Source: Escherichia phage vB_EcoM_Lh1B
Reading direction: 5' to 3' (one strand)
DNA length: 64,000 nt
Sequence record: OK428535.1
Of this stretch, positions 3,963-63,179 are shown piece after piece. The position numbers and the translations under genes were made by a program. Positions within the stretch are counted from its first letter, which is position 1. Every line of letters starts with the position of its first letter. Under the pieces are notes generated by a model. The model searched no databases. It saw nothing but the letters and a program-made list of their open reading frames with translations, and was not told the origin of the DNA.

Positions 3963-6131
3963 ATGTCCTACACTCCTGATTTAGTGGCGACCNTGATTCG
4001 GTCGCTCAACCGTAAAAACGCGGTCGCCAAAGCAGTAGACCCCGCTAACGTTCGCCTGGTGTCCGTGGAGCATCGTGACGAAAAAACCCTAGACGTCACA
4101 CTGACAGGGGGTCCGGGGTATTCAAGTTACGGTCAAATTACGGCCCAAGTGACGAAGCAAAATATTGCTGATTATTTCGCTAAGGTTAAGTTGGATGCCA
4201 TTCCCACCTGTGCATCCATCCACGAGCTGTTGCCGCATTTAGACACTCTACTAGGGATTACCTTTTTAACCGACGACTTTGAAGACCTGCCTATCACTTG
4301 GACAAACAATGCTGCGCGCATCACGTTCCAGGCGAAACAGACAAGTCTTATCTGGTACGGCAGCCAAACGCTAGATGTGATAAACGGTGACGTGGATATC
4401 AACACTGTCTACACTGTTACCAATATCATTCTCACGCTAAAGGCTGCGAATAAACAGCAGTGGATTAACTTCTACTCTAATGCAGCCAAACGGATCGTGG
4501 ATCTTGATAAAGTCGATGTCAGCGCCCCGATGTCCCCGGAGGATATAGGCCAAACCTCTGCGTATAACAGCGTCGTGGCTTTGACCGCTAGACCGGGGAG
4601 CGGGATGTTTGGAACGAAGTATGTGTTCTTCTCACGTAACAAACTCGAGACATATGCAGGCAAAACCACATACGTCCCGGATGATTTCACCGGTAGCCTG
4701 CACGATGCTCTGGCCATCGAGACACTCGGCATTCGGAGCGTTTTTGATGTAAACGAAATTGCTCCTGTAGAGAACCTGGCAGGCGAGTGGCCGAGACAAG
4801 TGCAATTGGCACCCGTAGAGGGTTCGTACAAAGTCATGGGCAGCGCCACGTTGAATGTGGCACGCTATCAAGATAACGAGCAAACCCTTAACCTGAACTA
4901 CACAACTACGTCGCAAGTTTCGGACAGCTACTGGGCCACGACGTTGACCAACCATGCGGCGTGCGGGCGTTTGTTTNTTAACGTGACCGTAGANGNGGGG
5001 GNTTTNGTTTTTCGCNCCAACAACCTAAAACCGACGTTCGTTATCGACGAATTGCCGCAAATTGGCGAGGTGGTTTGGAACTTCGTTAACCGGGGAACCA
5101 TTCTTGGTCGNGGTGGTTCGGGTATGGTCTATTCTCTGCCTGCGAACACATCAGCAGACGGAGCTGACGCAATCCACATTACCGATACCTTCCGCGGCAA
5201 AGTCACCATCGAAAACTACGGCACCATCGCCGGAGGTGGGGGTGGGGGCGACTACTATGCGTTTACCACCNCCAAGNTCGGTGGAGCTGGTGGTGCGCCT
5301 CTCGGGCCAGGCGCGGCGGTACCCAGCGGCACCAATAACCGTAACGGCTTAGCTGGGTCCCGTGACAAAGGCGGTGCTACCCAGTTAGTCGTCGCACAAT
5401 TTACCGGCTACCAGAGTCGCNACTATGGCGGTCCTGGTGGCGATTGGGGCCAGCCGGGACGATATACAGCGTTCGAGCAATGGAACACCCCGGCTACCGG
5501 CTCGCCGGTCTATGTCTACGGTCGTGAAGACGGGATGTCATGGACTCGCCCTGGGATGGCAGGCGAAGCCGTCGGTGGGAATAAAAGTATCGTCAACNGG
5601 GTATCCNTCGNAACGGGGAAACCNAATTTCACCNACGAGTACCAANAGTTCCNCNNCNACCNCNCAGATTTAGATNCCAACCGATTGGCCAGTGCGGATG
5701 GGATAGATAAAGTCACCGACCCAACCAAACCTGTAGTTGTGGAGTTCTTAGGTACGATTATTTCAGGTACGCTNTTCAAAAAGCAAAACATACCCGGCGG
5801 TTTGGTGGGAACACCATACGGCGATGCTGTAGCCAACTTACCGAGCACCACATTGTTTGGTATCATGGCACACTGTGTATCGGAGTTTGATATTGTGCAC
5901 GACACTTGGCGTTACAACCGTGCGGTAATGTTCACCCTAAAACCCNCNCCTACCGGGGCGATTGGCCTCGCTGTGGAACGCAACCGGGTGAAATCGGCTA
6001 CCAGTAGTACACCGGTGGAGAGGTTCTATGTCGATCGCTTCGTGTATTACGATGCGTATCTCGGTAAAATGATGGAATGTAATCCGTATACCAAATCTGC
6101 CCCTAAACCGTGGGTGCGGCCAACGATATGA
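3963..6131 (+). CDS. putative tail fibre protein with Gly-rich repeats
   Basis: 722-aa ORF with poly-Gly/GGxGG stretches (GGGGGGDYY..GGAGGAPLGPGA) typical of fibre shafts; shares its C-terminal module with CDS 2629-3948; contains n-runs. Confidence 0.65.
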   Translation: MSYTPDLVATXIRSLNRKNAVAKAVDPANVRLVSVEHRDEKTLDVTLTGGPGYSSYGQITAQVTKQNIADYFAKVKLDAIPTCASIHELLPHLDTLLGITFLTDDFEDLPITWTNNAARITFQAKQTSLIWYGSQTLDVINGDVDINTVYTVTNIILTLKAANKQQWINFYSNAAKRIVDLDKVDVSAPMSPEDIGQTSAYNSVVALTARPGSGMFGTKYVFFSRNKLETYAGKTTYVPDDFTGSLHDALAIETLGIRSVFDVNEIAPVENLAGEWPRQVQLAPVEGSYKVMGSATLNVARYQDNEQTLNLNYTTTSQVSDSYWATTLTNHAACGRLFXNVTVXXGXXVFRXNNLKPTFVIDELPQIGEVVWNFVNRGTILGXGGSGMVYSLPANTSADGADAIHITDTFRGKVTIENYGTIAGGGGGGDYYAFTTXKXGGAGGAPLGPGAAVPSGTNNRNGLAGSRDKGGATQLVVAQFTGYQSRXYGGPGGDWGQPGRYTAFEQWNTPATGSPVYVYGREDGMSWTRPGMAGEAVGGNKSIVNXVSXXTGKXNFTXEYQXFXXXXXDLDXNRLASADGIDKVTDPTKPVVVEFLGTIISGTXFKKQNIPGGLVGTPYGDAVANLPSTTLFGIMAHCVSEFDIVHDTWRYNRAVMFTLKPXPTGAIGLAVERNRVKSATSSTPVERFYVDRFVYYDAYLGKMMECNPYTKSAPKPWVRPTI

Positions 6132-6836: not shown

Positions 6837-7024
6837 AACAGAATTGGTTTGCTGCCTTAATGAAAGCTATCTGGCGCGCCCTTGTTTTTGCCNNAAGGAG
6901 AAAACGAAATGACCCACCGTCCAACTCCGCCTAAGTTCCCCGAAGTACAAACCGTTCCGGAAACGTATTACGATTCTGGGTTCTTCAAACTATTACGCGC
7001 GATCTTCTGTCGGAGGGTAAAGCC

Positions 7025-7117
7025 ATGCAATACGACAACGACGACTGGCCGAAAGGCTTAATGCCCATTTTACTGGGATTAATGGTCCTCACGATGCTCG
7101 TGCGTTATATGACGTGA
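7025..7117 (+). CDS. tiny single-TM peptide (30 aa)
   Basis: ATG preceded by GGAGGG; MQYDNDDWPKGLMPILLGLMVLTMLVRYMT has one hydrophobic helix; below the ORF-track length cut-off. Confidence 0.3.
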   Translation: MQYDNDDWPKGLMPILLGLMVLTMLVRYMT

Positions 7118-7124
7118 GGTCAGT

Positions 7125-7766
7125 ATGGAAGCACTTAAGTATAAGTTGTTAGAGAAGCCGTGGTTTATCCTCACGGATGATTTCCATTTCGAGTTTACGT
7201 TGCGCAGCCTCTATCGTGAGCACACCGGAATGGATGCGATGGTAGCATTAACAGGTGTACACCCGGATACTCCGTTATGGGTAACGGTACCGAAAGGATT
7301 TGTAACGGACCTGGCAAGCATTCCAGAAGCGNTNCNNCCTATCCTNCNNCCGGANGGGCCTTGGGCCGCNGCCNCTTGTGTGCATGATTTGTTTTACCAG
7401 AAACGTTCATCGGGGGTCTTGTACCCTGACACTGTCGAAGGTAATCTATCTCGTGCATGTGACAAAACATTCGCTGACCTGATGTTCTTACGTATCATGG
7501 AGGCATTAGGCGTTGACACCTTTATTCGTAAGTCCTTCTACCATGCCGTTCACGAGTTTGGTTGGCCGTCCTATGTAGACGATAACTCTAAGGTGGTTTA
7601 TAGCCGGCCGGTAGAAAAGACGTTGTCCTATAATCGCAACTACCTGTTCTTTAGAACGTCGCGTACGTTAGCGATTCCTGAACACGAACGTGTTGACATT
7701 ACTAATGGGCAACCGGTAAACGTGCAGTATTTGAATATCAAACGTGCGTTCCTGACTACCCCTTAA
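7125..7766 (+). CDS. hypothetical protein (DUF1353-like motif?)
   Basis: 213-aa ORF with GAGG RBS; motif VTDLASIP...CVHDLFY resembles the DUF1353 signature from memory. Confidence 0.55.
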   Translation: MEALKYKLLEKPWFILTDDFHFEFTLRSLYREHTGMDAMVALTGVHPDTPLWVTVPKGFVTDLASIPEAXXPIXXPXGPWAXAXCVHDLFYQKRSSGVLYPDTVEGNLSRACDKTFADLMFLRIMEALGVDTFIRKSFYHAVHEFGWPSYVDDNSKVVYSRPVEKTLSYNRNYLFFRTSRTLAIPEHERVDITNGQPVNVQYLNIKRAFLTTP

Positions 7767-7775
7767 GGAGAGAAA

Positions 7776-8291
7776 ATGTTTCATCCGAATCCTGCCAACT
7801 TCGCGTTAAAAGAGTTGATGCCGCAGGAGTACATCGCGAAATATGGTGAAGGTGCTATTCGTTTCCTTAATCCGTTACTGCTAATCTCGCTCCAACAGAT
7901 TCGTAATCGTTTTGGGCGGATGGTGATTTTAACCAGTTCCCAGCAACAGCGTAGTCTGCGTACCCTGCAGTTCTTTATTAATCAAGAGAAACCAAAGGGT
8001 GGAGATTGGCAAACTCGTGCAAACAAACTGTACGCCGAATCAGGCAGTATGCATAAATTCGGTAATGCGTTTGATGCAACAATGCTTGATACACCGTTGC
8101 AGAAAGTACACGACTATATTGCCGCGAACCCTAACGAGTTTCCGTTTATTCACTTTATCGAGTGCGATATTACCTGGCTGCATGTTGACGTACGCAACCA
8201 GCCTGATATCACCTTCTGGTCACCGACACGTGGTACCGTTAAAGTGGTTAAGCAACAACCCATCGATTGGAGCAAGCTAGTTAAAATCTAA
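7776..8291 (+). CDS. peptidase M15-family (Peptidase_M15_3-like) cell-wall peptidase
   Basis: AAGGAG RBS; motifs SMHKFGNAFDAT and WLHVDVRN match the Zn-binding S.H..G.A.D / HVDVR signature of M15 D-Ala-D-Ala / L-Ala-D-Glu peptidases. Confidence 0.6.
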   Translation: MFHPNPANFALKELMPQEYIAKYGEGAIRFLNPLLLISLQQIRNRFGRMVILTSSQQQRSLRTLQFFINQEKPKGGDWQTRANKLYAESGSMHKFGNAFDATMLDTPLQKVHDYIAANPNEFPFIHFIECDITWLHVDVRNQPDITFWSPTRGTVKVVKQQPIDWSKLVKI

Positions 8292-8383
8292 GCCACTTTA
8301 ATCAAAAGTAATATCATTTATCATTTGATACGTTTAATGCGCTTAGAGAGCGTTACAGAGCGTTTTAGAGGGTAAATAAAGCC

Positions 8384-8414
8384 CTTACCCACTCCCCTTA
8401 CGGGAGTGGGTAAG
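8384..8414. terminator. bidirectional rho-independent terminator
   Basis: Stem CTTACCCACTCCC / GGGAGTGGGTAAG with A-rich 5' and T-rich 3' flanks, between convergent genes. Confidence 0.6.
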
Positions 8415-8416
8415 CA

Positions 8417-8908
8417 TTATTTATTTTCTTCTAACGGAACAATCGTAATCGGAGTAGGAACTTCACCGATAAACCCGCTGCTGCAGCGAAAGAATGTCAT
8501 CCCTTTACCTTCGCCGGTATACGGGTTCACATCCGAAAAAGAATAAGTGGGGCTATCGTTTACGGTTTTATTAATACGGTAATAACGCTCACCTGTGGTG
8601 GTGTTAACATTCCCGTCGATTTTGCCGATCACGTCTTTAAACATCATCGGTGACTCTAGTTTGCCACCGTCCCACGCTGCTACCCAGTTTGCACCCACAT
8701 CCATTACTGTTACTGACCGCGGCATCATTTGTAGGTTGTCCAGTACCGGACGGTAGTCTACAAACTTCTCCTGCGTCCCTGTGCATGTATAAATCACCAA
8801 GTCGTGATTCTTTACTGGTGTGGCGCTAAATTGTCCTATGTTGCTTGGCGACTGAACACAACCGGCCAACAGGTTTATAATCGCGAATACGATAAATAGA
8901 CGTTTCAT
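8417..8908 (-). CDS. lipoprotein (possible superinfection-exclusion or receptor-masking protein)
   Basis: Signal peptide with lipobox MKRLFIVFAIINLLAGC; AGGA RBS. Confidence 0.65.
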   Translation of the reverse strand: MKRLFIVFAIINLLAGCVQSPSNIGQFSATPVKNHDLVIYTCTGTQEKFVDYRPVLDNLQMMPRSVTVMDVGANWVAAWDGGKLESPMMFKDVIGKIDGNVNTTTGERYYRINKTVNDSPTYSFSDVNPYTGEGKGMTFFRCSSGFIGEVPTPITIVPLEENK

Positions 8909-9032
8909 AGAGTATCCTTTCAGTGGTAAAAACTTTCTCGTTTAACAGCCAACTTTACTGTCATATTAAGCCCACTATGTTGTTTTTAGAACGATTTAGT
9001 ATGCACCACAAACCTACTATAAGGAAACAACC

Positions 9033-9581
9033 ATGGCAGTCATCTCTGCAAAAGACCAACTCGTCGCGCTGTTTAATGCTGCAAACAGCGGACTGTCTAG
9101 TCCGTTAACTACTGCTGACGTTACATTCGGCGCTGTTGCTGACTATTCACCAGCAGATTCTGGAGACACTCGCAACTCCAAACTCACCATCACTGCCACC
9201 GCGGAATCCGCTAACTTTACGGGCGAGAAAGAGCTGCACTATACCCGCCTCGATTCATTGAACATCATCGGTGCGAAAGCAGTTACCGCTGACCAGGCAG
9301 AATGGGATACCGATGAAGAAGTGCTTGCTTTTGTCAACGCAGATCTAATTGCCGCCGGTAAAACGGAAGATGCGTTTGCATTGTCTGAACTCACCATTTC
9401 ACGCGAGGACGGCGACAGTGGTGAGAAAATCATCACTGTTATGGTGAAAGAAGGCCACATTAAATACCAGCCTGCCAGCCTTGCAGTTTATACTGTAACG
9501 CAGCCAATCGTTAAAACTGACCTGAGCACCACCAACGGTGAACTAGACGGATTCGTTTCACAAAACAACGTTAGTATGTAA
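9033..9581 (+). CDS. hypothetical protein sharing a C-terminal motif with the first CDS
   Basis: 182-aa ORF; C-terminus DLSTTNGELDGFVSQ is paralogous to the TNGELDGFQ end of CDS 2-634. Confidence 0.55.
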   Translation: MAVISAKDQLVALFNAANSGLSSPLTTADVTFGAVADYSPADSGDTRNSKLTITATAESANFTGEKELHYTRLDSLNIIGAKAVTADQAEWDTDEEVLAFVNADLIAAGKTEDAFALSELTISREDGDSGEKIITVMVKEGHIKYQPASLAVYTVTQPIVKTDLSTTNGELDGFVSQNNVSM

Positions 9582-9620
9582 CTAAGAAATTAGTAGTTTC
9601 TAAGAAATAAATAAAAGGTA

Positions 9621-9644
9621 CCTACCTCCCTTCGGGGAGGTAGG
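9621..9644. terminator. bidirectional rho-independent terminator
   Basis: CCTACCTCCC-ttcg-GGGAGGTAGG hairpin with TTCG tetraloop and A/T-rich flanks, between convergent genes. Confidence 0.6.
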
Positions 9645-9661
9645 GCCTTTATTTTCTTTGC

Positions 9662-10333
9662 TTACATGCCGAGTGACTCGGACAATGTTTTTAATCCGGT
9701 GTAATCGCGCTTTTCAGCTAACTCACGGATTTGGCGTTTGTTATCTGCCATTGCTGAGTGCAACACTTGGTCACGTGCAACAATAGCGGCCAGCAACGCT
9801 TTACATTGGGCTACTGTAAACGGACTGTGCTTAGTATTCAGCGTATCGAGCCAGTATTCTGGTGCGGTATCTGCCTGAATGTATTGACCGAGGATGGTAC
9901 GCGACGATTCATCGGCTTGAAAGTGACTACCTTCAAACTCGATATAACCATGGCGCTCATCTTCGTAGCGGTGGTCGAGTTCCAACAGCATCTTCTGCAC
10001 GTCTTCGTAAATGTAACGTGCGGTAGATTTCAGATTCCCGCGAATTTCGTCGAGGTCAATCTCCAGCACATTAGCAATAAACTCTTTCGTGCGTTTCAAT
10101 GTGAAGTTAGCTTCAATCTCCGACATCTCATACAGCTTCATGCGTGCCAGGGCTTCTTTATCAGACATCCCTTCGATGAGATGGTAATGGAGTAATGCAC
10201 AAAATCCGGTACGACCCTGATCCTGCGCACCGATTCGTTCCATGAAATTACCGTGACGATCAATCGGCAAATCACGCTGGAAATAACNGGCGCGGATCTC
10301 TTCGTTCGTTAAGCTTTTGTCAGTAACAGACAT
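9662..10333 (-). CDS. hypothetical protein, last gene of the rSAM/Cys-peptide operon
   Basis: 223-aa ORF with GAGGAGG RBS; overlaps the upstream gene by 25 nt. Confidence 0.55.
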   Translation of the reverse strand: MSVTDKSLTNEEIRAXYFQRDLPIDRHGNFMERIGAQDQGRTGFCALLHYHLIEGMSDKEALARMKLYEMSEIEANFTLKRTKEFIANVLEIDLDEIRGNLKSTARYIYEDVQKMLLELDHRYEDERHGYIEFEGSHFQADESSRTILGQYIQADTAPEYWLDTLNTKHSPFTVAQCKALLAAIVARDQVLHSAMADNKRQIRELAEKRDYTGLKTLSESLGM

Positions 10334-10875
10334 TCGTCCTCCTCAATCAGGCCAAGTTCTAACAACAAACCGAAGTCCAGCATCTGGAAGTCCTGATCGA
10401 GGTTACCGGCCCACAACAGAGAAATGTTGTGTTGCTCTTCTTCTTCCAACTGCGGGAGCAGGTGTTCTTCGAAGATTTGACGTTCTGTGTAATAAGCGTC
10501 AACCGGGTTATTGGAGCGTAAGTTACGAATACGCATCCGCGGGAATGACAAGCCCAATGCCACTAAACTTTCAGGACTGGCTTCATCAATAGAGTGACGT
10601 AGCAGTTCGATTTTGTGGCGTGGGTATGCAAGCAGTCGCTTCTCAAAGCCAGGGTTGCGCTTTTCGATTTCCGCGACAGACTCGTGTCCTTTCTCAACGC
10701 AGTAGACCGGGATCATCACATTCAGCCCGTATTTAATCAACAGGCTTTGGATTTCATCAGTGAAGTCTTCCCCTGCCACAATTGCGTGCACATTGTACAG
10801 CTTGCTTTTGCGCAGGAAGCGATCGACCAAGTGCAGTTTACGCTTCGTAAAATTGTGAATCAGTATTGACTTCAT
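10309..10875 (-). CDS. hypothetical protein (start uncertain)
   Basis: ORF 10309-10953; most plausible start is the ATG at 10875 (MKSILIHNF...) with GGAG RBS; overlaps the rSAM/SPASM gene. Confidence 0.5.
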   Translation of the reverse strand: MKSILIHNFTKRKLHLVDRFLRKSKLYNVHAIVAGEDFTDEIQSLLIKYGLNVMIPVYCVEKGHESVAEIEKRNPGFEKRLLAYPRHKIELLRHSIDEASPESLVALGLSFPRMRIRNLRSNNPVDAYYTERQIFEEHLLPQLEEEEQHNISLLWAGNLDQDFQMLDFGLLLELGLIEEDECLLLTKA

Positions 10876-16349: not shown

Positions 16350-19300
16350 TTAGGTACGGAACATAAGATTGACCTGGATAATATCAGGCTGTTGACGTCC
16401 TCTCTCGTTCACCCAATCGTGTGCAATCGTTAACGTAAGATCATCGCCTTCCCACGACACGATCGGTGGTGGGAATAAACCCTGAGCGCCCGTGGTAACA
16501 ACCGGGATTGCACCTGCCACATTCGTAAACGTATAGCTACGACTGTTCAGAACAACCGGTGTGCCGTGGGTCTCTCCCGGCTGTGGTAAGATTTGAATCT
16601 TACTATCCGAAAGATCGGTGGTGATTGGTAGACCCCCAGCGTCCGTGAAAAGCCAAGAGCAAATATNCTGGTTNGCTGTTTCGAGCGCTGAAGAACTCTT
16701 CACAGCCGCGAAAGTAAAGGTGCACGGCACGCCTGCTGGCAGAGAGTGCTGTTTGTGGTGCACGGTATGTGGTGACGGCAATAACACTTCTGGATTTTCG
16801 TCAATGTTAACATCCGTACCTTCCGCCTCGACGTTGTAGAAAAAGCCATCCACCGCCTCCCATGGGGCAACGTGGACATTAAAGGTCGTTTCTACTCCCG
16901 GTGTACCTGGGACGACGAATTTACTTTGCACCACCACCATCATAGTTCTTGAGGTCGGTGAGAAAGCGGGCGTTGGAATACCTACCCACTCCATTCCCAA
17001 CGATGCCGCTTCACCGTTCTCATCAGCCGTTACCGTCGCGATTGTTGTAGGATGTTTCCAAAACGCCCCCGACTTGTTTGCCTGAGTAAACGCCGGCAAA
17101 GTTTTCAAGCCTTCGAAACGTTTGGACACCATCGCTTTACCGCGACGCTGTGCGTCAGATACGGTATAAAGCAACTGACTATCCAGATAGCCTTTCGTAG
17201 CATCGATCGACAAAGGACCCATCGCTTCTTTACGCAATGGTGCCAGTCTGCCCGTTGCTGCATCCCTTCCCACTTCCACATCATGCTTATTCTCAACCGC
17301 CGCATGTTCCAACAGTTGTTTCACCGCCCCCAATCGCTTAGCATGTTCGACGTTAGTCTCGACGACTCGTGACGAGCCCGTTTTAACATACCCGATATAG
17401 AGTTCCGTTTCAGTGTCTGGATGTTGAATCACGTCCATTACGTACTTCGGTGTACCATTTTCTACCTTGGCGTGCAGGTAGAATGTCCGGTTCTGATGGT
17501 TTGTTGGAAATGCTGCGCTGAGGTCAATATACCACGTAGGCAGCTTATAAGTGCTCGAGCCGAAACGCAGGTCAACTTCCTCAGTCACATATACCAGCCA
17601 ACCTTCGGCTGTTTCCACNCCAGCAATGACGACCGATTCAGTCGGGCCACTAAAATTAGGAGCCGCGACAAAATCACTCGACGACATTGCGATACCACCA
17701 CAATAGACGTAGTCGAGAGATGAGTTGTGTAGCATCACCTGATCACGATGAGCCAGATAAGCTGGGCTGACTGGAGTGTGTGATGGTGCCATGCGTCCAA
17801 TGCCGTGTGGAGCAGAAGAACGCGTCCAGGTACCATTAGACAGCGTAAGACCAACACCGTAGTTAAGCGCACCCAAGTCGCCAATTTGGCGCAAGGTTAA
17901 CGTGTGTGGAAGATACAACCCGAACTGCGTACCATCTACTGACACCAGTGTAGGTTGTCCCGGCCGGCGTGTTTTTCCTCCCGTTATCTCACCCAACGTA
18001 GCATAGTTCAAGCCATAGTCGAGGTTGTTATAGAAGTCAAACAATGCCAATATCGCTGCCGGGAATGTTACCTGCCCGTTACTGATTGTTGGTTTCAGTG
18101 TAAAGTAGTAGATATCCAACAAGTTAACATTGTTCACAGTACGCGTACATGCTACTTGTGCTAACGTGAGCGGTGTGGCCGTACCAATGCCGATGAACCA
18201 AATGGAGAACAGTGCCTTTCCGGCGTTATTTGCGGCAAGGATAAATTCCGAAGCATAACCATTCGCAGCGCCAGCCGGTGCGCCGTCGATAATCATCTGC
18301 TTCATCTTATCCCATTCGGCTTGTGACAGCGTCAACCGATCGGCATGAATCGTGAAAGTGCCAGAAACGTTGTGGTAAGGGAATGTTTCTGGTCCTGTGC
18401 AATACCAGCCGTTTAACTCTGTACCAGGCGACGCCGGTGTAACAATGTGGCACATCTGCGACAGATTCTCGTACGTGGTAGAATCTACTACACGACGATT
18501 GTTAGTTGGTCCATACCCCGCTTTACCTGAATAAGTGGTGTTCGGATCAAACTCAACTTCAATTGCCAAACGGGTACGCGGCTGTGACAACCAGATAAGT
18601 CTGGAATTCGCTCCCAGAGTCAGCGGATACGCCATGCCCAGCTCGTAGATAGAACCACGACCTTGGTTTAACATTACCGCACTAAAACTTCTGGCAGTGA
18701 AGTTGTAGTCGCACGACAGGTACTCGTACCAACTCACACCGTCATCTAACGTTGTAATCGTGACATAAGGCATTAGGTCGCGATCGCCTGCATGTCCTTG
18801 CGAAACGATATACTTGTCTTGCGATGTTGCAAAGGTTCGGTTATTAGCTTGACCTTCGCCCCATTTCCGGCTCGGAATCCCAATCTCAGCGCCACCGTTA
18901 TAACGAACCGTGGTAAGATCGGCCACAATAGGGAATCGATCAGCACCTTCCAGCGTTATCGTCATTGAACTACAATCAACAACAAAGCTTGACACCCATT
19001 GTTTAAAGTTAATAGTTTGCCCTGTAGTAGAAGCAAACCAAACCGTTGGAGTTAAACCAACACGAAAGTTCAGCCCATCCACACCAATCGCGTGATTACA
19101 TTCCGGACCATGGACAAATTTCGTCGCACTATTCCACTTCGCCGATGCGTCTGCGTAGATTTGTGTTACTGGCGCTACCAACACATCTGTATCAGAACGN
19201 TTCTGACCCTGACGCAAGTAGATATTATCTCCCGACGTTAACATCCCACCTGTTAACACATCCGCCACAAACGTGTTGCTACCACCCAGATTAAGTTCGT

Positions 19301-29485: not shown

Positions 29486-29552
29486 TTTACACTCCTTTTC
29501 TCTGAGGGCGTCGAGTTCATACTATGACCCGAATCCTTAGAGGAAACAGCCA

Positions 29553-48479: not shown

Positions 48480-48505
48480 CTACCTACTCCCAAGGGAGTA
48501 GGTAG
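48480..48505. terminator. bidirectional rho-independent terminator
   Basis: CTACCTACTCCC / GGGAGTAGGTAG stem with A-rich and T-rich flanks between convergent genes. Confidence 0.6.
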
Positions 48506-50549: not shown

Positions 50550-51065
50550 GTGAGCATGATAGCATCAGTTTTCAAACTGCTTCCATTCTTACAAATGCTG
50601 TGGGAAGCATTTAAACCGGGCGAGGGGGAGAAAGTAACACGAGCCGGGAAAATAGTGACACTAGTGATAGTGGCACTGATCGCGTTCTCTGCATTTGTCT
50701 CATACGCCTACATTGTTCAATACCACACACTGGTTAGCGTTCAATCGCGTACTCAGTATCTGGAGATATCCTATAAGGAGCTAAAAGAGAAGTCCGATCA
50801 TGGCGAAGTGGAGAACAATAAGTTGTACGATCGTCTCTTCACGTGCCTGGGTTCTCGACCGCCATATGATGGTACCAAATCTCCAACAGGAACAGGCACT
50901 GAGGCCGCGGTTCCGCCTGTANAAANCAANCCNGTAANNCCNCCGGCNCCGTTNAATCCNTCTANCCCNCCNNCCAAGAAATACCNGGCCNCTTCTCNCC
51001 CGGTAGGGTCGCAGGAGGCAAATGATTTCCGACAGGAGATTATCAGTACGCTTAATAATCCATGA
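50550..51065 (+). CDS. membrane protein with periplasmic coiled coil (i-spanin candidate)
   Basis: TM segment IVTLVIVALIAFSAFVSYAYIV followed by charged helical region (ISYKELKEKSDHGEVENNKLYDRL); n-rich C-terminus. Confidence 0.4.
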   Translation: MSMIASVFKLLPFLQMLWEAFKPGEGEKVTRAGKIVTLVIVALIAFSAFVSYAYIVQYHTLVSVQSRTQYLEISYKELKEKSDHGEVENNKLYDRLFTCLGSRPPYDGTKSPTGTGTEAAVPPVXXXXVXXPXPXNXSXXXXKKYXAXSXPVGSQEANDFRQEIISTLNNP

Positions 51066-51074
51066 GGAGCATAC

Positions 51075-51554
51075 ATGAAGTTATTTTTGGTGGCGATACT
51101 GGTGCTATTGTTGACAGGATGCCCTGGAGCCATCCGTCACGTAGACCCAGATTACTCCTCAACCGGAGATTGGCCTTTTCGTCCTTTAGAACACCCACCA
51201 GTTTATGCTGGTGGGAACAGTCCTGAGGCGAAAAAGCTGGCAGGGAAAATGTTTGTTGCGGATGTGAACGCTTATGCTTATTACGTTTATCTGTACGCTA
51301 AGTCGTTGAACAATTACGCAGAAGCTAAGGGGTGGCGCACCCCGATGGCCGCACCGCTTTGTGAAGAGTTTATTCGCCCCACTCTTCATGATATACCCTC
51401 CGGGATATATCTCGACCCTGGTTCTCGTAGCCCTCAAGACATTAGTCGTGATTTGTCACGACAGATTAAGTCNCTCATTCGCAGCTATCGCGAAGACAGA
51501 GAGTCTTTTAATCATGCCTACGAACGGCACAAAAGTAGTTGCCTTGTGCAATGA
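51075..51554 (+). CDS. lipoprotein (o-spanin candidate)
   Basis: MKLFLVAILVLLLTGC lipobox immediately downstream of the membrane protein. Confidence 0.55.
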   Translation: MKLFLVAILVLLLTGCPGAIRHVDPDYSSTGDWPFRPLEHPPVYAGGNSPEAKKLAGKMFVADVNAYAYYVYLYAKSLNNYAEAKGWRTPMAAPLCEEFIRPTLHDIPSGIYLDPGSRSPQDISRDLSRQIKXLIRSYREDRESFNHAYERHKSSCLVQ

Positions 51555-51560
51555 AAACTC

Positions 51561-51597
51561 CCTCTTACCTTCGGGTAAGAGGGGATTTCCTTTTTTA
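51561..51597 (+). terminator. rho-independent terminator
   Basis: CCTCTTACC-ttcg-GGTAAGAGG hairpin followed by a T-run. Confidence 0.6.
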
Positions 51598-54619: not shown

Positions 54620-54640
54620 CTGAGATAGATATTATCTACA
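54620..54640 (+). promoter_or_regulatory. recurring intergenic motif (candidate promoter element)
   Basis: CTGAGATAGATATTATCTACA, preceded by TTGCAT at 54601. Confidence 0.3.
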
Positions 54641-58299: not shown

Positions 58300-58326
58300 T
58301 ACCCACTCCCGTAAGGGGAGTGGGTA
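58300..58326. terminator. bidirectional rho-independent terminator
   Basis: TACCCACTCCC-gtaa-GGGGAGTGGGTA; same stem sequence as the terminator at 8384. Confidence 0.6.
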
Positions 58327-58341
58327 CTGCTTACTTNNTNT

Positions 58342-59097
58342 TTATTTTTTGTTTGCTTTCAGGGTCTTGAGGCGATCACCGGTTACGTTCAGACATTCTG
58401 TCAGTTCATTAATCTGTTTCATAAACAGTCCGAACAGCTCAACCCAGTCAGCACCCATGTCAGCCATTTTCACTAACTCTGCCGCCACATTAGGATGGAC
58501 TTGTGAATTAGAGATAATGTCTACAGAGACGTTGATGCTTTCAACTGTACGGTCAATACCTTTCTGGAGTTTCTTAGTCACTTCCAGGTTCAGCGCTTTG
58601 GCACGATTAAACGCAACGTCAATCTCACCTGCACTGTGGTAGGTCTTTTCAATCGCACGCTGGTCGATCACATTGTTGGTGTACGACTTCGCCAGTTTTT
58701 CAACCAGGTCTTTCGGATTGATGTTTTTCAGTGGATAGTTCAGGTCTTTGAACTTAAACCNAATCGNNNGAGTTAACATGCCCNGGTCGTGTGTCATCGC
58801 GCCGAAACGTTTGTCGATGGGACTTAAAACCCCTTCCTGAATCTTCTGGAGCACAGCCCATACAGATTCCAACCGTTCTATGTGGTCCATCACATACGTG
58901 TTGAAGCCCGGTGGTACGGGTACAAGCATTCCGGTAAAGTTTAAAAACTTCTCTTGCTGCATCCACTTGGACACATCAGACATGTCGTCATAGGTGGTCA
59001 GCGCGAGTTCCTGTTGAGAGCCGCTGAAGGCTTTAGGCAGAATCGTGGATGCTTTGGCAACAAAGCCCGACAACGCTGCAAGTGGATTAACATTCAT
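58342..59097 (-). CDS. hypothetical protein
   Basis: 251-aa ORF on the minus strand, flanked by terminator. Confidence 0.55.
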   Translation of the reverse strand: MNVNPLAALSGFVAKASTILPKAFSGSQQELALTTYDDMSDVSKWMQQEKFLNFTGMLVPVPPGFNTYVMDHIERLESVWAVLQKIQEGVLSPIDKRFGAMTHDXGMLTXXIXFKFKDLNYPLKNINPKDLVEKLAKSYTNNVIDQRAIEKTYHSAGEIDVAFNRAKALNLEVTKKLQKGIDRTVESINVSVDIISNSQVHPNVAAELVKMADMGADWVELFGLFMKQINELTECLNVTGDRLKTLKANKK

Positions 59098-59195
59098 TCT
59101 ATCAACCTCGAATATATAAGGGATTGGGCTACATAGTAAGTCTTTTACGTATCACCCAAACCTTATGTACGAGAACTGCAAAAAGGTAACACCTG

Positions 59196-63157: not shown

Positions 63158-63179
63158 CTCAGACAGATATTATCTATCC
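63158..63179 (+). promoter_or_regulatory. recurring intergenic motif (candidate promoter element)
   Basis: CTCAGACAGATATTATCTATCC upstream of CDS 63210. Confidence 0.3.

Follow-up and report, generated by a model that had tools for sequence, protein, structure and literature searches.

T5, T1-like and lambdoid phages encode outer-membrane lipoproteins through which the surface of the host is rewired, and to our knowledge no such protein has been described for the nucleus-forming jumbo phages. The genes for the Cor proteins of phages T1, phi80, N15 and HK022 lie close to tail or host-range genes, and their outer-membrane lipoprotein products inactivate a receptor. TraT of the F plasmid reportedly interferes with OmpA-dependent, Gp38-type phages. 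Llp of phage T5, whose relation to Cor has been described (PMC9586334), is the product of an early gene, blocks FhuA, and has its chain ends tied together by Cys11-Cys58; part of the rationale given for it is that progeny would otherwise be lost on infected cells and debris (PMC9586334). Here we describe gp159, encoded on the minus strand of a 64,000-nucleotide stretch of DNA from Escherichia phage vB_EcoM_Lh1B (record OK428535.1; the whole stretch is hereafter called the window), and predict from its sequence that it is an exported lipoprotein anchored in the outer membrane, with its function unassigned. Positions 7700-10400 are 95-98.5% identical to SPN3US-like jumbo phages of ~240 kb (Seoulvirus, Chimalliviridae), and none of the 315 ambiguous bases of the window falls within the gene at 8417..8908. 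The product is 95.7% identical to SPN3US_0159 (gp159; RefSeq ACQ60_gp107), which is annotated as a “hypothetical protein.”

The prediction of export comes from the N terminus of the protein (Table 1). A Shine-Dalgarno sequence, AGGA at 8917..8914, lies 5 nt ahead of the ATG, and the encoded chain opens with a charged n-region (K2 R3) followed by a hydrophobic stretch of 13 residues (mean Kyte-Doolittle value 2.65) and the lipobox L14-A15-G16-C17. This arrangement agrees with the hallmarks of Sec export and signal peptidase II processing, namely a charged n-region, an h-region of 7-22 residues, a lipobox of the form [LVI][ASTVI][GAS]C, and a Cys at about position 15-35. The 163-residue protein with a canonical LAGC lipobox that had been reported in an earlier, sequence-only reading of this DNA is therefore borne out in its open reading frame (ORF), n-region, h-region and Cys17. 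Among family members, the canonical signal is found in 35 of 36, down to ~25% identity, and the one without it is an incomplete entry full of errors. When all ORFs of at least 35 aa in the window were scanned with a loose lipobox pattern, a single other convincing lipoprotein ORF was returned (51075..51554). Given this rarity and the retention of the signal across the family, the gp159 lipobox is not a chance match. Residue +2 is Ala in 24 members, Ser in 4, Val in 3, and Thr, Gln, Lys or Met in one each. Because it is never Asp, sorting to the outer membrane by the Lol system is predicted.

The AlphaFold2 model of gp159 (mean predicted local distance difference test score 81) consists of a signal helix, a disordered tether, a small all-beta barrel of eight strands, and a disordered tail whose length varies among relatives. 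Means over blocks of 10 residues are at least 88 across residues 31-140, except for 79 at residues 111-120 (range 79-95). Every full-length family member has counterparts of Cys42 and Cys142. In the model these belong to the second strand (residues 38-50) and to the last one (residues 134-144), and a disulfide between them probably locks the barrel.

Profile scans matched gp159 to phrog_9559 (E 1.6e-81; residues 3-163 aligned to positions 6-166 of the 166-position profile), a family of unknown function, and to no Pfam, NCBIfam or annotated PHROG family. A Foldseek comparison of the model with the PDB gave no match at E <=0.001, with PliC and MliC absent from the results, and the family profile had no match among PDB sequences. 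In the Foldseek viral library, two matches beyond the protein's own family reached E <=0.001, an unnamed viral protein and a protein of Xanthomonas phage DIBBI (11-14% identity); weaker matches were small proteins of other large phages. Thus, gp159 shows no kinship with Llp, Cor, MliC/PliC or Rz1, and its barrel is without a characterized relative.

The family itself is narrow. A tblastn search placed gp159 in 65 records of phages, 27 of them from Erwinia phages and none from Vibrio or Cronobacter phages; besides SPN3US-like phages, they cover Erwinia jumbo phages (45-61% identity) and Goslar (33%). A word-indexed search with a single sequence reached close relatives only, and the wider family came from alignment-seeded and exhaustive profile searches. 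The former gave 33 proteins at E <=0.01, 24 of them new and mostly on contigs of ~240 kb, and the latter, run against 1.84 billion representatives, gave 16 at E <=0.001, about 13 of them convincing. The other three (P0043-P0045) are long repetitive proteins that match through short YYR-type motifs in their repeats, and we rejected them as noise. A stretch that is strongly conserved in the family reads ESPQLYKDLLGKIDG. Goslar gp88 (also written gp088) is a true homolog, with 33% identity over residues 33-144 and with the lipobox, the Cys pair and the family profile in common. One Erwinia phage homolog carries a DUF2846 label, which we set aside: a PF11008-type profile was not among the Pfam matches of 28 members at E values up to 5.

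Gene SEGD1_162 of Enterobacteria phage SEGD1 (locus L012, 5218..5709) was deposited with an internal Met as its start, giving a 126-aa product from which the signal peptide and lipobox are cut off; the full 163-codon ORF is intact, and the truncation has been carried into BFVD and UniProt (A0A142IIM1). Two members were deposited as bacterial proteins, P0013 from a Salmonella enterica serovar Agona assembly (227 kb contig) and P0030 from Proteus mirabilis (partial). Isolate assemblies contributed 308 member sequences and 23 contigs, jumbo-phage-sized, which suggests that SPN3US-like phages are carried along in Salmonella isolates.

The genes around gp159 are arranged as gp155, an endolysin gene, a DUF1353 gene and gp158 (all plus strand), a hairpin, gp159 (minus), 124 bp, gp160 (plus), a second hairpin, and gp161 onward (minus). 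The sequence-only reading had described gp159 as a stand-alone gene insulated by two bidirectional terminators, and as the only minus-strand gene in its neighborhood. Both hairpins are strong. Each has an A-run on its 5′ side and a T-run on its 3′ side, scores as terminator-like on both strands, and has a predicted RNA folding energy of -25 to -30 kcal/mol (z -5.2 to -6.2; not equaled by any of 200 shuffles). Counting perfect stems of at least 8 bp, we found 16 hairpins in the window; 7 of them look bidirectional, these two included, and the one at 8384 is the strongest. In eight of nine loci of relatives, the stop codon of the lipoprotein gene is followed by a hairpin with a T-run, the stem sequences being different, and in the Goslar locus the hairpin after the lipoprotein gene is missing its T-run. 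The statement about the neighborhood must be withdrawn, as an uninterrupted minus-strand block holding gp161, gp162 and two radical-SAM genes begins at 9662. Because the 9621 hairpin sits between gp160 and the first gene of that block (9662..10333), the two hairpins bracket the divergent gp159/gp160 pair rather than gp159 alone. Insulation by the adjoining 8384 hairpin is retained, and gp159, bounded by this hairpin on one side and by a putative divergent promoter region on the other, is supported as its own transcription unit.

Promoter and terminator sequences were compared in a five-phage DNA alignment and across nine loci. TATGAC is found 42-64 nt upstream of the lipoprotein gene in the window, SPN3US, Asesino, Wellington and ChrisDB, and Goslar has TATG at -40; ahead of the gp160-like gene, Asesino, Wellington and ChrisDB have a conserved TATG[CA]AC. 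Transcription in these phages relies on RNA polymerases of their own, and phiKZ late promoters carry T(-3)ATG(+1), all four bases of which are needed in vitro (PMC7598289). By analogy, TATGAC and TATG may act as the late promoters of gp159 and gp160. Across the window, 6 of 33 upstream regions have TATG at -30 to -38 (~1.2 expected), two other divergent pairs among them. The longer motif TATG[AC]AC shows no genome-wide enrichment (9 versus 15.4), and TATG overall has no strand bias across the upstream regions of the window. Sigma-70-type promoters were considered and rejected, with 4 sites versus 13.6 in shuffles and a 9-of-12 match at 9043..9016 that is not credible.

Expression timing has been recorded for the Goslar homolog. 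Knock-down of ChmA, which concerns the phage nucleus, halts Goslar infection in the early program (bioRxiv 10.1101/2023.09.20.558163), and RNA-seq reads for gp088 numbered 358/426/425 in controls versus 6/11/3 in the knock-down (bioRxiv 10.1101/2023.09.20.558163 Sup. Table 2). The log2 fold change of -3.6 to -6.0 resembles those of capsid and tail-fiber genes and is opposite to those of early genes (bioRxiv 10.1101/2023.09.20.558163). This collapse marks gp088 as a late gene in Goslar, where it was measured, and by analogy we infer that gp159 is a late, nucleus-dependent gene in the present phage.

The lipoprotein gene is also optional. In Cronobacter phage CR5, the gp158-like gene, a hairpin, TTATGAC and the gp160-like gene follow one another on one strand with no lipoprotein gene; the two genes are joined by 90 nt, and TTATGAC lies 43 nt before the gp160-like gene. 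In the window, a promoter-gene-terminator unit of ~740 bp is present in reverse orientation between gp158 and gp160. Because this unit is missing in CR5, we regard it as a moron-like accessory cassette. Its own terminator and the TATG upstream region, a putative promoter, are conserved, and it is present or absent between flanking genes, as are morons. Among Erwinia relatives (Asesino, Wellington, ChrisDB), the divergent pair of lipoprotein and gp160-like genes is kept while the flanks are rearranged. Between SPN3US and SEGD1, gp159 has 9 amino acid changes, with nonsynonymous divergence (dN) 0.027, synonymous divergence (dS) 0.14, and dN/dS 0.19, whereas eight neighboring genes have 0-3 changes, dN <=0.0025 and dS 0.014-0.048. 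Thus, gp159 is a local divergence hot-spot that evolves faster than its neighbors under purifying selection.

We favor, with a probability of about 0.35, the tentative reading that gp159, an outer-membrane lipoprotein made late, disables an envelope target involved in adsorption or entry and thereby protects progeny. A short flexible tether would hold the compact eight-stranded barrel in the periplasm. The gene would be transcribed late by the phage non-virion RNA polymerase, alongside virion and host-recognition genes, and the protein would reach a high level by lysis, as for Goslar gp88. From the periplasmic side, the barrel could then bind some component of the envelope, the most plausible being an abundant outer-membrane protein used as receptor or entry portal, and the target would be switched off, as FhuA is by T5 Llp. 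Released progeny and late-arriving phages would be spared loss on infected cells and outer-membrane debris. Since gp159 appears to be a late gene, the benefit would fall at progeny release rather than in early exclusion.

This reading is supported by the canonical and conserved signal, the +2 residue, the invariant Cys pair, the confident barrel model, the absence of gp159 from SPN3US virions, the bounded cassette and its absence from CR5, and the late expression and abundance of the Goslar homolog. Other support is circumstantial. The lipoprotein gene is always embedded in a host-recognition block (gp155 and gp160 in the window), a setting of the sort that harbors exclusion lipoproteins of the Llp or Cor type. 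The Gp38 adhesin type seen in gp155 binds outer-membrane proteins in T-even phages, gp159 is a divergence hot-spot, and, like Llp, it is a predicted outer-membrane lipoprotein with a probable disulfide. The proposal of superinfection exclusion or receptor masking made in the sequence-only reading thus keeps its footing in a predicted outer-membrane lipoprotein that forms its own unit, is optional, evolves fast, and lies among host-recognition genes. Its addition, that gp159 acts as T5 Llp does, loses ground on the lack of any sequence or fold relation, on late rather than early timing, and on a reported flagellar receptor, which leaves a possible late role in receptor inactivation or progeny protection. 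Early exclusion in the style of Llp is unlikely because the Goslar homolog is late and a TATG core is present in the window, whereas T5 llp is early.

A number of observations weigh against progeny protection by receptor inactivation. Searches of PHROG, Pfam, NCBIfam and PDB profiles and with Foldseek revealed no homology to Llp, Cor or a characterized exclusion protein. Llp-type proteins track their cognate receptor-binding protein, and the gp159 family is conserved (45-60% identity) in Salmonella, Erwinia and E. coli phages with differing receptor-binding proteins, so a conserved host target, or a phage target, would be required. The reported receptor of SPN3US is the flagellum (PMC11428620), in which case direct masking by a periplasm-facing lipoprotein would not be possible. 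Likewise, DUF7941 fibers have been proposed to bind carbohydrate (bioRxiv 10.64898/2026.04.21.720040), which a periplasmic lipoprotein cannot mask. The rise of dS along with dN in gp159 may reflect simple allele exchange, and late timing and the nearby endolysin/DUF1353/M15 block equally fit a role in lysis. We consider the conservation across differing receptor-binding proteins and the flagellar receptor of SPN3US to be the main weaknesses.

A lysis accessory is the alternative that survives best, although we regard it as unlikely. As a non-canonical functional analog of an o-spanin, a late outer-membrane lipoprotein might contribute to the final step of lysis or to its timing, for instance by loosening links between the outer membrane and peptidoglycan (Lpp, Pal, OmpA) or by acting with the GH108 endolysin, a small membrane protein and the DUF1353 block. 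A predicted outer-membrane lipoprotein whose Goslar homolog is late and abundant at lysis, and whose gene adjoins endolysin, DUF1353 and M15-like genes in the window, Asesino, Wellington and locus L011, would suit such a role. However, the copies in Goslar and locus L008 stand beside tail-fiber genes instead of lysis genes, the gene is transcribed alone from the opposite strand, and CR5 does without it. No i-spanin-like partner is adjacent or embedded, as gp157, gp158, gp160 and gp161 have no N-terminal transmembrane domain (TMD), and a folded barrel of 146 mature residues with a predicted disulfide differs from the short, proline-rich o-spanins. The window also holds a better spanin candidate in ORFs 50550..51065 and 51075..51554 with the terminator that follows, likely a separated two-component spanin pair.

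It is distinctly improbable that gp159 is a periplasmic inhibitor of peptidoglycan hydrolases, MliC/PliC-like and acting in the manner of T4 Spackle, aimed at the tail-associated lysin that an incoming phage brings or at an enzyme of the phage itself, the M15-like gp158 or the GH108 enzyme. The Foldseek search noted above returned neither a PDB match at E <=0.001 nor PliC/MliC, and the PDB profile search and Pfam scans gave none. Co-occurrence with gp158 was not found either, and the distributions differ: gp158 homologs are present in 167 records (118 Vibrio, 8 Erwinia), versus 65 records with no Vibrio for the lipoprotein, and CR5 has gp158 without the lipoprotein.

Proteomic data for two phages bear on whether gp159 is instead part of the virion. 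The proteome of CsCl-purified SPN3US particles lists gp155 and gp160 but not gp156-159 (PMC5105663 Table S4), and gp159 is not among the ~85 proteins seen, down to 3-5 spectra, in the SPN3US virion and mutant-particle set (PMC5105663). For Goslar, in contrast, gp88 was reported at about 490-1160 copies per virion-equivalent with 78% coverage (bioRxiv 10.64898/2026.04.21.720040 Table S4), which makes it the fifth most abundant unmodeled virion protein (~740 copies by label-free quantification) and one of ten unexplained high-copy proteins (bioRxiv 10.64898/2026.04.21.720040). The word “lipoprotein” has no occurrence in that preprint, which treats gp88 as virion-associated. The same preparation also carries chimallin and PhuZ, as its authors note, and gp88 exceeds both (bioRxiv 10.64898/2026.04.21.720040). 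Among the rows listed in the Goslar peptide sheet, there are at least 29 for OmpC, at least 19 for OmpA and at least 17 for OmpF, compared with at least 31 for the major capsid protein. The outer-membrane peptides suggest that carry-over of outer membrane explains the gp88 signal, and the absence from SPN3US and abundance in Goslar can be reconciled if an abundant late outer-membrane lipoprotein rides on membrane debris. The gp88 coverage of 77.84% corresponds to 37 uncovered residues, which fits an uncovered N-terminal stretch of 31 residues or another uncovered 31-residue peptide; neither CATLEG.. nor ATLEG.. N-terminal peptides occur among the Goslar peptide rows listed.

That gp159 is a genuine virion component, processed or not, at hundreds of copies in or on particles is therefore very improbable: the Goslar copy number and coverage, and late co-expression of gp88 with structural genes, are outweighed by a conserved Sec/signal peptidase II signal that would export the protein from the cytoplasm, where capsids assemble, by its absence from SPN3US virions and mutant particles, by the OmpC, OmpA, OmpF, chimallin and PhuZ content of the Goslar sample, and by the absence of the gene from CR5. 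We can also imagine, as a long shot, that the lipoprotein travels with virions at 500-1000 copies, on the DUF7941 fiber cloud or on patches of outer membrane held by the fibers. If true, progeny would leave decorated with phage-modified host envelope, affecting dispersal, stability or the next adsorption.

The neighboring genes place gp159 among host-recognition functions. The protein gp155 matches PF25613 (E 2.3e-23), PF05268 (E 8.9e-17, residues 375-531) and phrog_2056 (“tail fiber protein; host specificity”). Its gene lies 2.3 kb from gp159 with three genes between, and Erwinia relatives are without a gp155-like gene at the locus. The short DUF7941 protein gp160 is very abundant in SPN3US virions (mass-spectrometry counts 112-280; PMC5105663 Table S4), and gp158 was reported as a low-level, non-head virion protein (PMC5105663). 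DUF7941 proteins have been proposed to form a host-recognition fiber cloud (2026 preprint, bioRxiv 10.64898/2026.04.21.720040). Both gp155 and gp160 persist in tailless (am27 sup-) SPN3US particles (PMC5105663), which is hard to square with DUF7941 filaments anchored at the baseplate. In the Goslar lineage, the lipoprotein gene comes directly after, or one gene after, a long tail-fiber gene: in Goslar itself it follows a P1 S-like tail fiber and its chaperone, and in L008 a 1375-aa tail protein. In L011, the most distant member, a DUF7941 operon closes with the lipoprotein gene, which converges on M15-like and DUF1353 genes just as gp159 does in the window. Neighbors in the metagenomic loci L008 and L009 had no Pfam match, and PHROGs named a tail protein only. 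Goslar gp087, equal in length to gp157, was tried as a DUF1353 homolog and discarded for want of similarity.

Erwinia relatives encode a protein of 34-44 aa with one hydrophobic segment between the GH108 endolysin and DUF1353 genes. The equivalent 288-bp gap in the window (6837..7124) contains ambiguous bases and no clear ORF.

Table 1. Features of the gp159 locus, of other parts of the window, and of related loci (coordinates are those of the window unless a locus is named)
Feature	Position	Strand	Description
gp159 lipoprotein gene	8417..8908	-	ORF, 163 aa, start MKRLFIVFAIINLLAGC; SPN3US_0159 ortholog; phrog_9559
Signal peptide and lipobox L-A-G-C	8858..8908	-	Lipobox nt 8869..8858; Cys17 codon 8860..8858; +2 residue Val
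gp159 protein layout			Signal peptide 1-16; lipidated Cys17 (predicted); short disordered tether; beta-barrel ~27-144; variable disordered tail 145-163
Hairpin between convergent gp158(+) and gp159(-)	8384..8414	both	13-bp perfect stem, 8 G-C pairs, 5-nt loop
Divergent intergenic region	8909..9032		124 bp; putative back-to-back promoters of gp159 and gp160
TATGAC	8960..8965	-	Conserved; start would be G 8962, with a 53-nt leader, if used like the phiKZ late element
TATG core	9000..9003	+	33 nt upstream of gp160 ATG; putative late promoter
Hairpin between gp160(+) and gp161(-)	9621..9644	both	10-bp stem, 7 G-C pairs
gp155	3963..6131	+	DUF7941 N-terminal module and Gp38-type tail-fiber adhesin; virion protein
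gp158	7776..8291	+	M15-like putative peptidoglycan peptidase, convergent with gp159; phrog_894 endolysin E 2.8e-26, weak PF08291
gp160	9033..9581	+	Short DUF7941 protein, divergent partner of gp159; PF25613 E 3.6e-11
Small hydrophobic protein	L002 5332..5436; L003 5320..5433; L004 1279..1413		Possible holin or other small lysis membrane protein
ORF, 171 aa	50550..51065	+	One TMD (KIVTLVIVALIAFSAFVSYAYIV), then coiled-coil-like stretch; phrog_8719 (unknown function)
Lipoprotein ORF, 159 aa	51075..51554	+	MKLFLVAILVLLLTGC, Pro-rich after Cys; phrog_8165 (unknown function)
Terminator hairpin after 51075..51554	51560..51583		
AGATATTATCTA palindrome sites	54627..54638; 63165..63176; 19220..19231; 58512..58523		

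Other parts of the window share sequence elements with this locus. The hairpins at 8384..8414 and 58300..58326 are both preceded by AAATAAAGCC and share the stem TACCCACTCCC/GGGAGTGGGTA, the loop being inverted, and those at 9621..9644 and 48480..48505 share CCTACCTCCC-like stems. Such hairpin families suggest duplication or a terminator sequence preferred by phage RNA polymerases. The divergent pairs at 29486..29552 and 59098..59195 carry TATG cores back to back, each 30-38 nt ahead of its start codon, exemplified at 29.5 kb by CATAGTATGAAC / CATACTATGACC, and follow the same grammar as the gp159/gp160 intergenic region. An AT-rich palindrome, AGATATTATCTA, has 13 matches with up to 2 mismatches (3.5 expected; none of 100 shuffles reaches 13). 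Two perfect copies lie ~35-45 nt upstream of gene starts 54672 and 63210, and none lies upstream of gp159. We consider it a candidate early promoter, used by the virion RNA polymerase (vRNAP), or an operator.

Should gp159 prove to act on an envelope target, identifying its partner would single out a part of the envelope important to nucleus-forming jumbo phages, for which receptors and the route through the envelope are poorly defined. Because the family is narrow, and its members appear abundant, late and optional, gp159 would be a convenient handle for this purpose. The Goslar list of virion-associated proteins in high copy number also reads differently, as one of the ten carries a conserved lipoprotein signal and is more simply explained as debris-borne. 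Furthermore, in therapy with SPN3US-like phages, the design of cocktails could be affected by a gene that changes the infected cell's surface.

Described systems differ from gp159, or from our reading of it, in the following ways. With regard to Goslar gp88, the preprint has a virion-associated protein, whereas our evidence favors export to the outer membrane and co-purification with membrane debris. Rz1 and other o-spanins resemble gp159 as late phage outer-membrane lipoproteins, encoded near the endolysin gene as gp159 is in some relatives, but gp159 is a folded barrel without an i-spanin partner at its locus, is absent in CR5, and shares the window with a separate spanin-like pair at 50550..51554. 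MliC/PliC and T4 Spackle differ in that gp159 has no profile or Foldseek support as a relative and a distribution uncoupled from that of the neighboring hydrolase. Lambdoid morons such as Bor, and TraT, whose products alter the cell surface, are similar in being single genes with their own promoter and terminator, located between conserved genes, missing in relatives, and encoding an outer-membrane lipoprotein; TraT, in addition, reportedly affects Gp38-type phages, and gp155 carries a Gp38-type adhesin domain. Unlike these, gp159 lacks homology to either and would be expressed in lytic growth by a phage RNA polymerase rather than from a prophage. Cor differs in that gp159 has no Pfam or PHROG match to such a family, is much larger, and belongs to a strictly lytic jumbo phage. 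Llp shares with gp159 an extra Cys pair and a gene location in the receptor-recognition region. However, gp159 is a predicted beta-barrel of 146 mature residues versus 61 for Llp (2.4x), has no detectable sequence or fold similarity to it, is late judging from the Goslar homolog, and occurs across differing receptor-binding proteins and hosts. Thus, gp159 may follow an Llp-like logic without the ancestry or timing of Llp, and would represent an uncharacterized variant of the phage outer-membrane lipoprotein theme.

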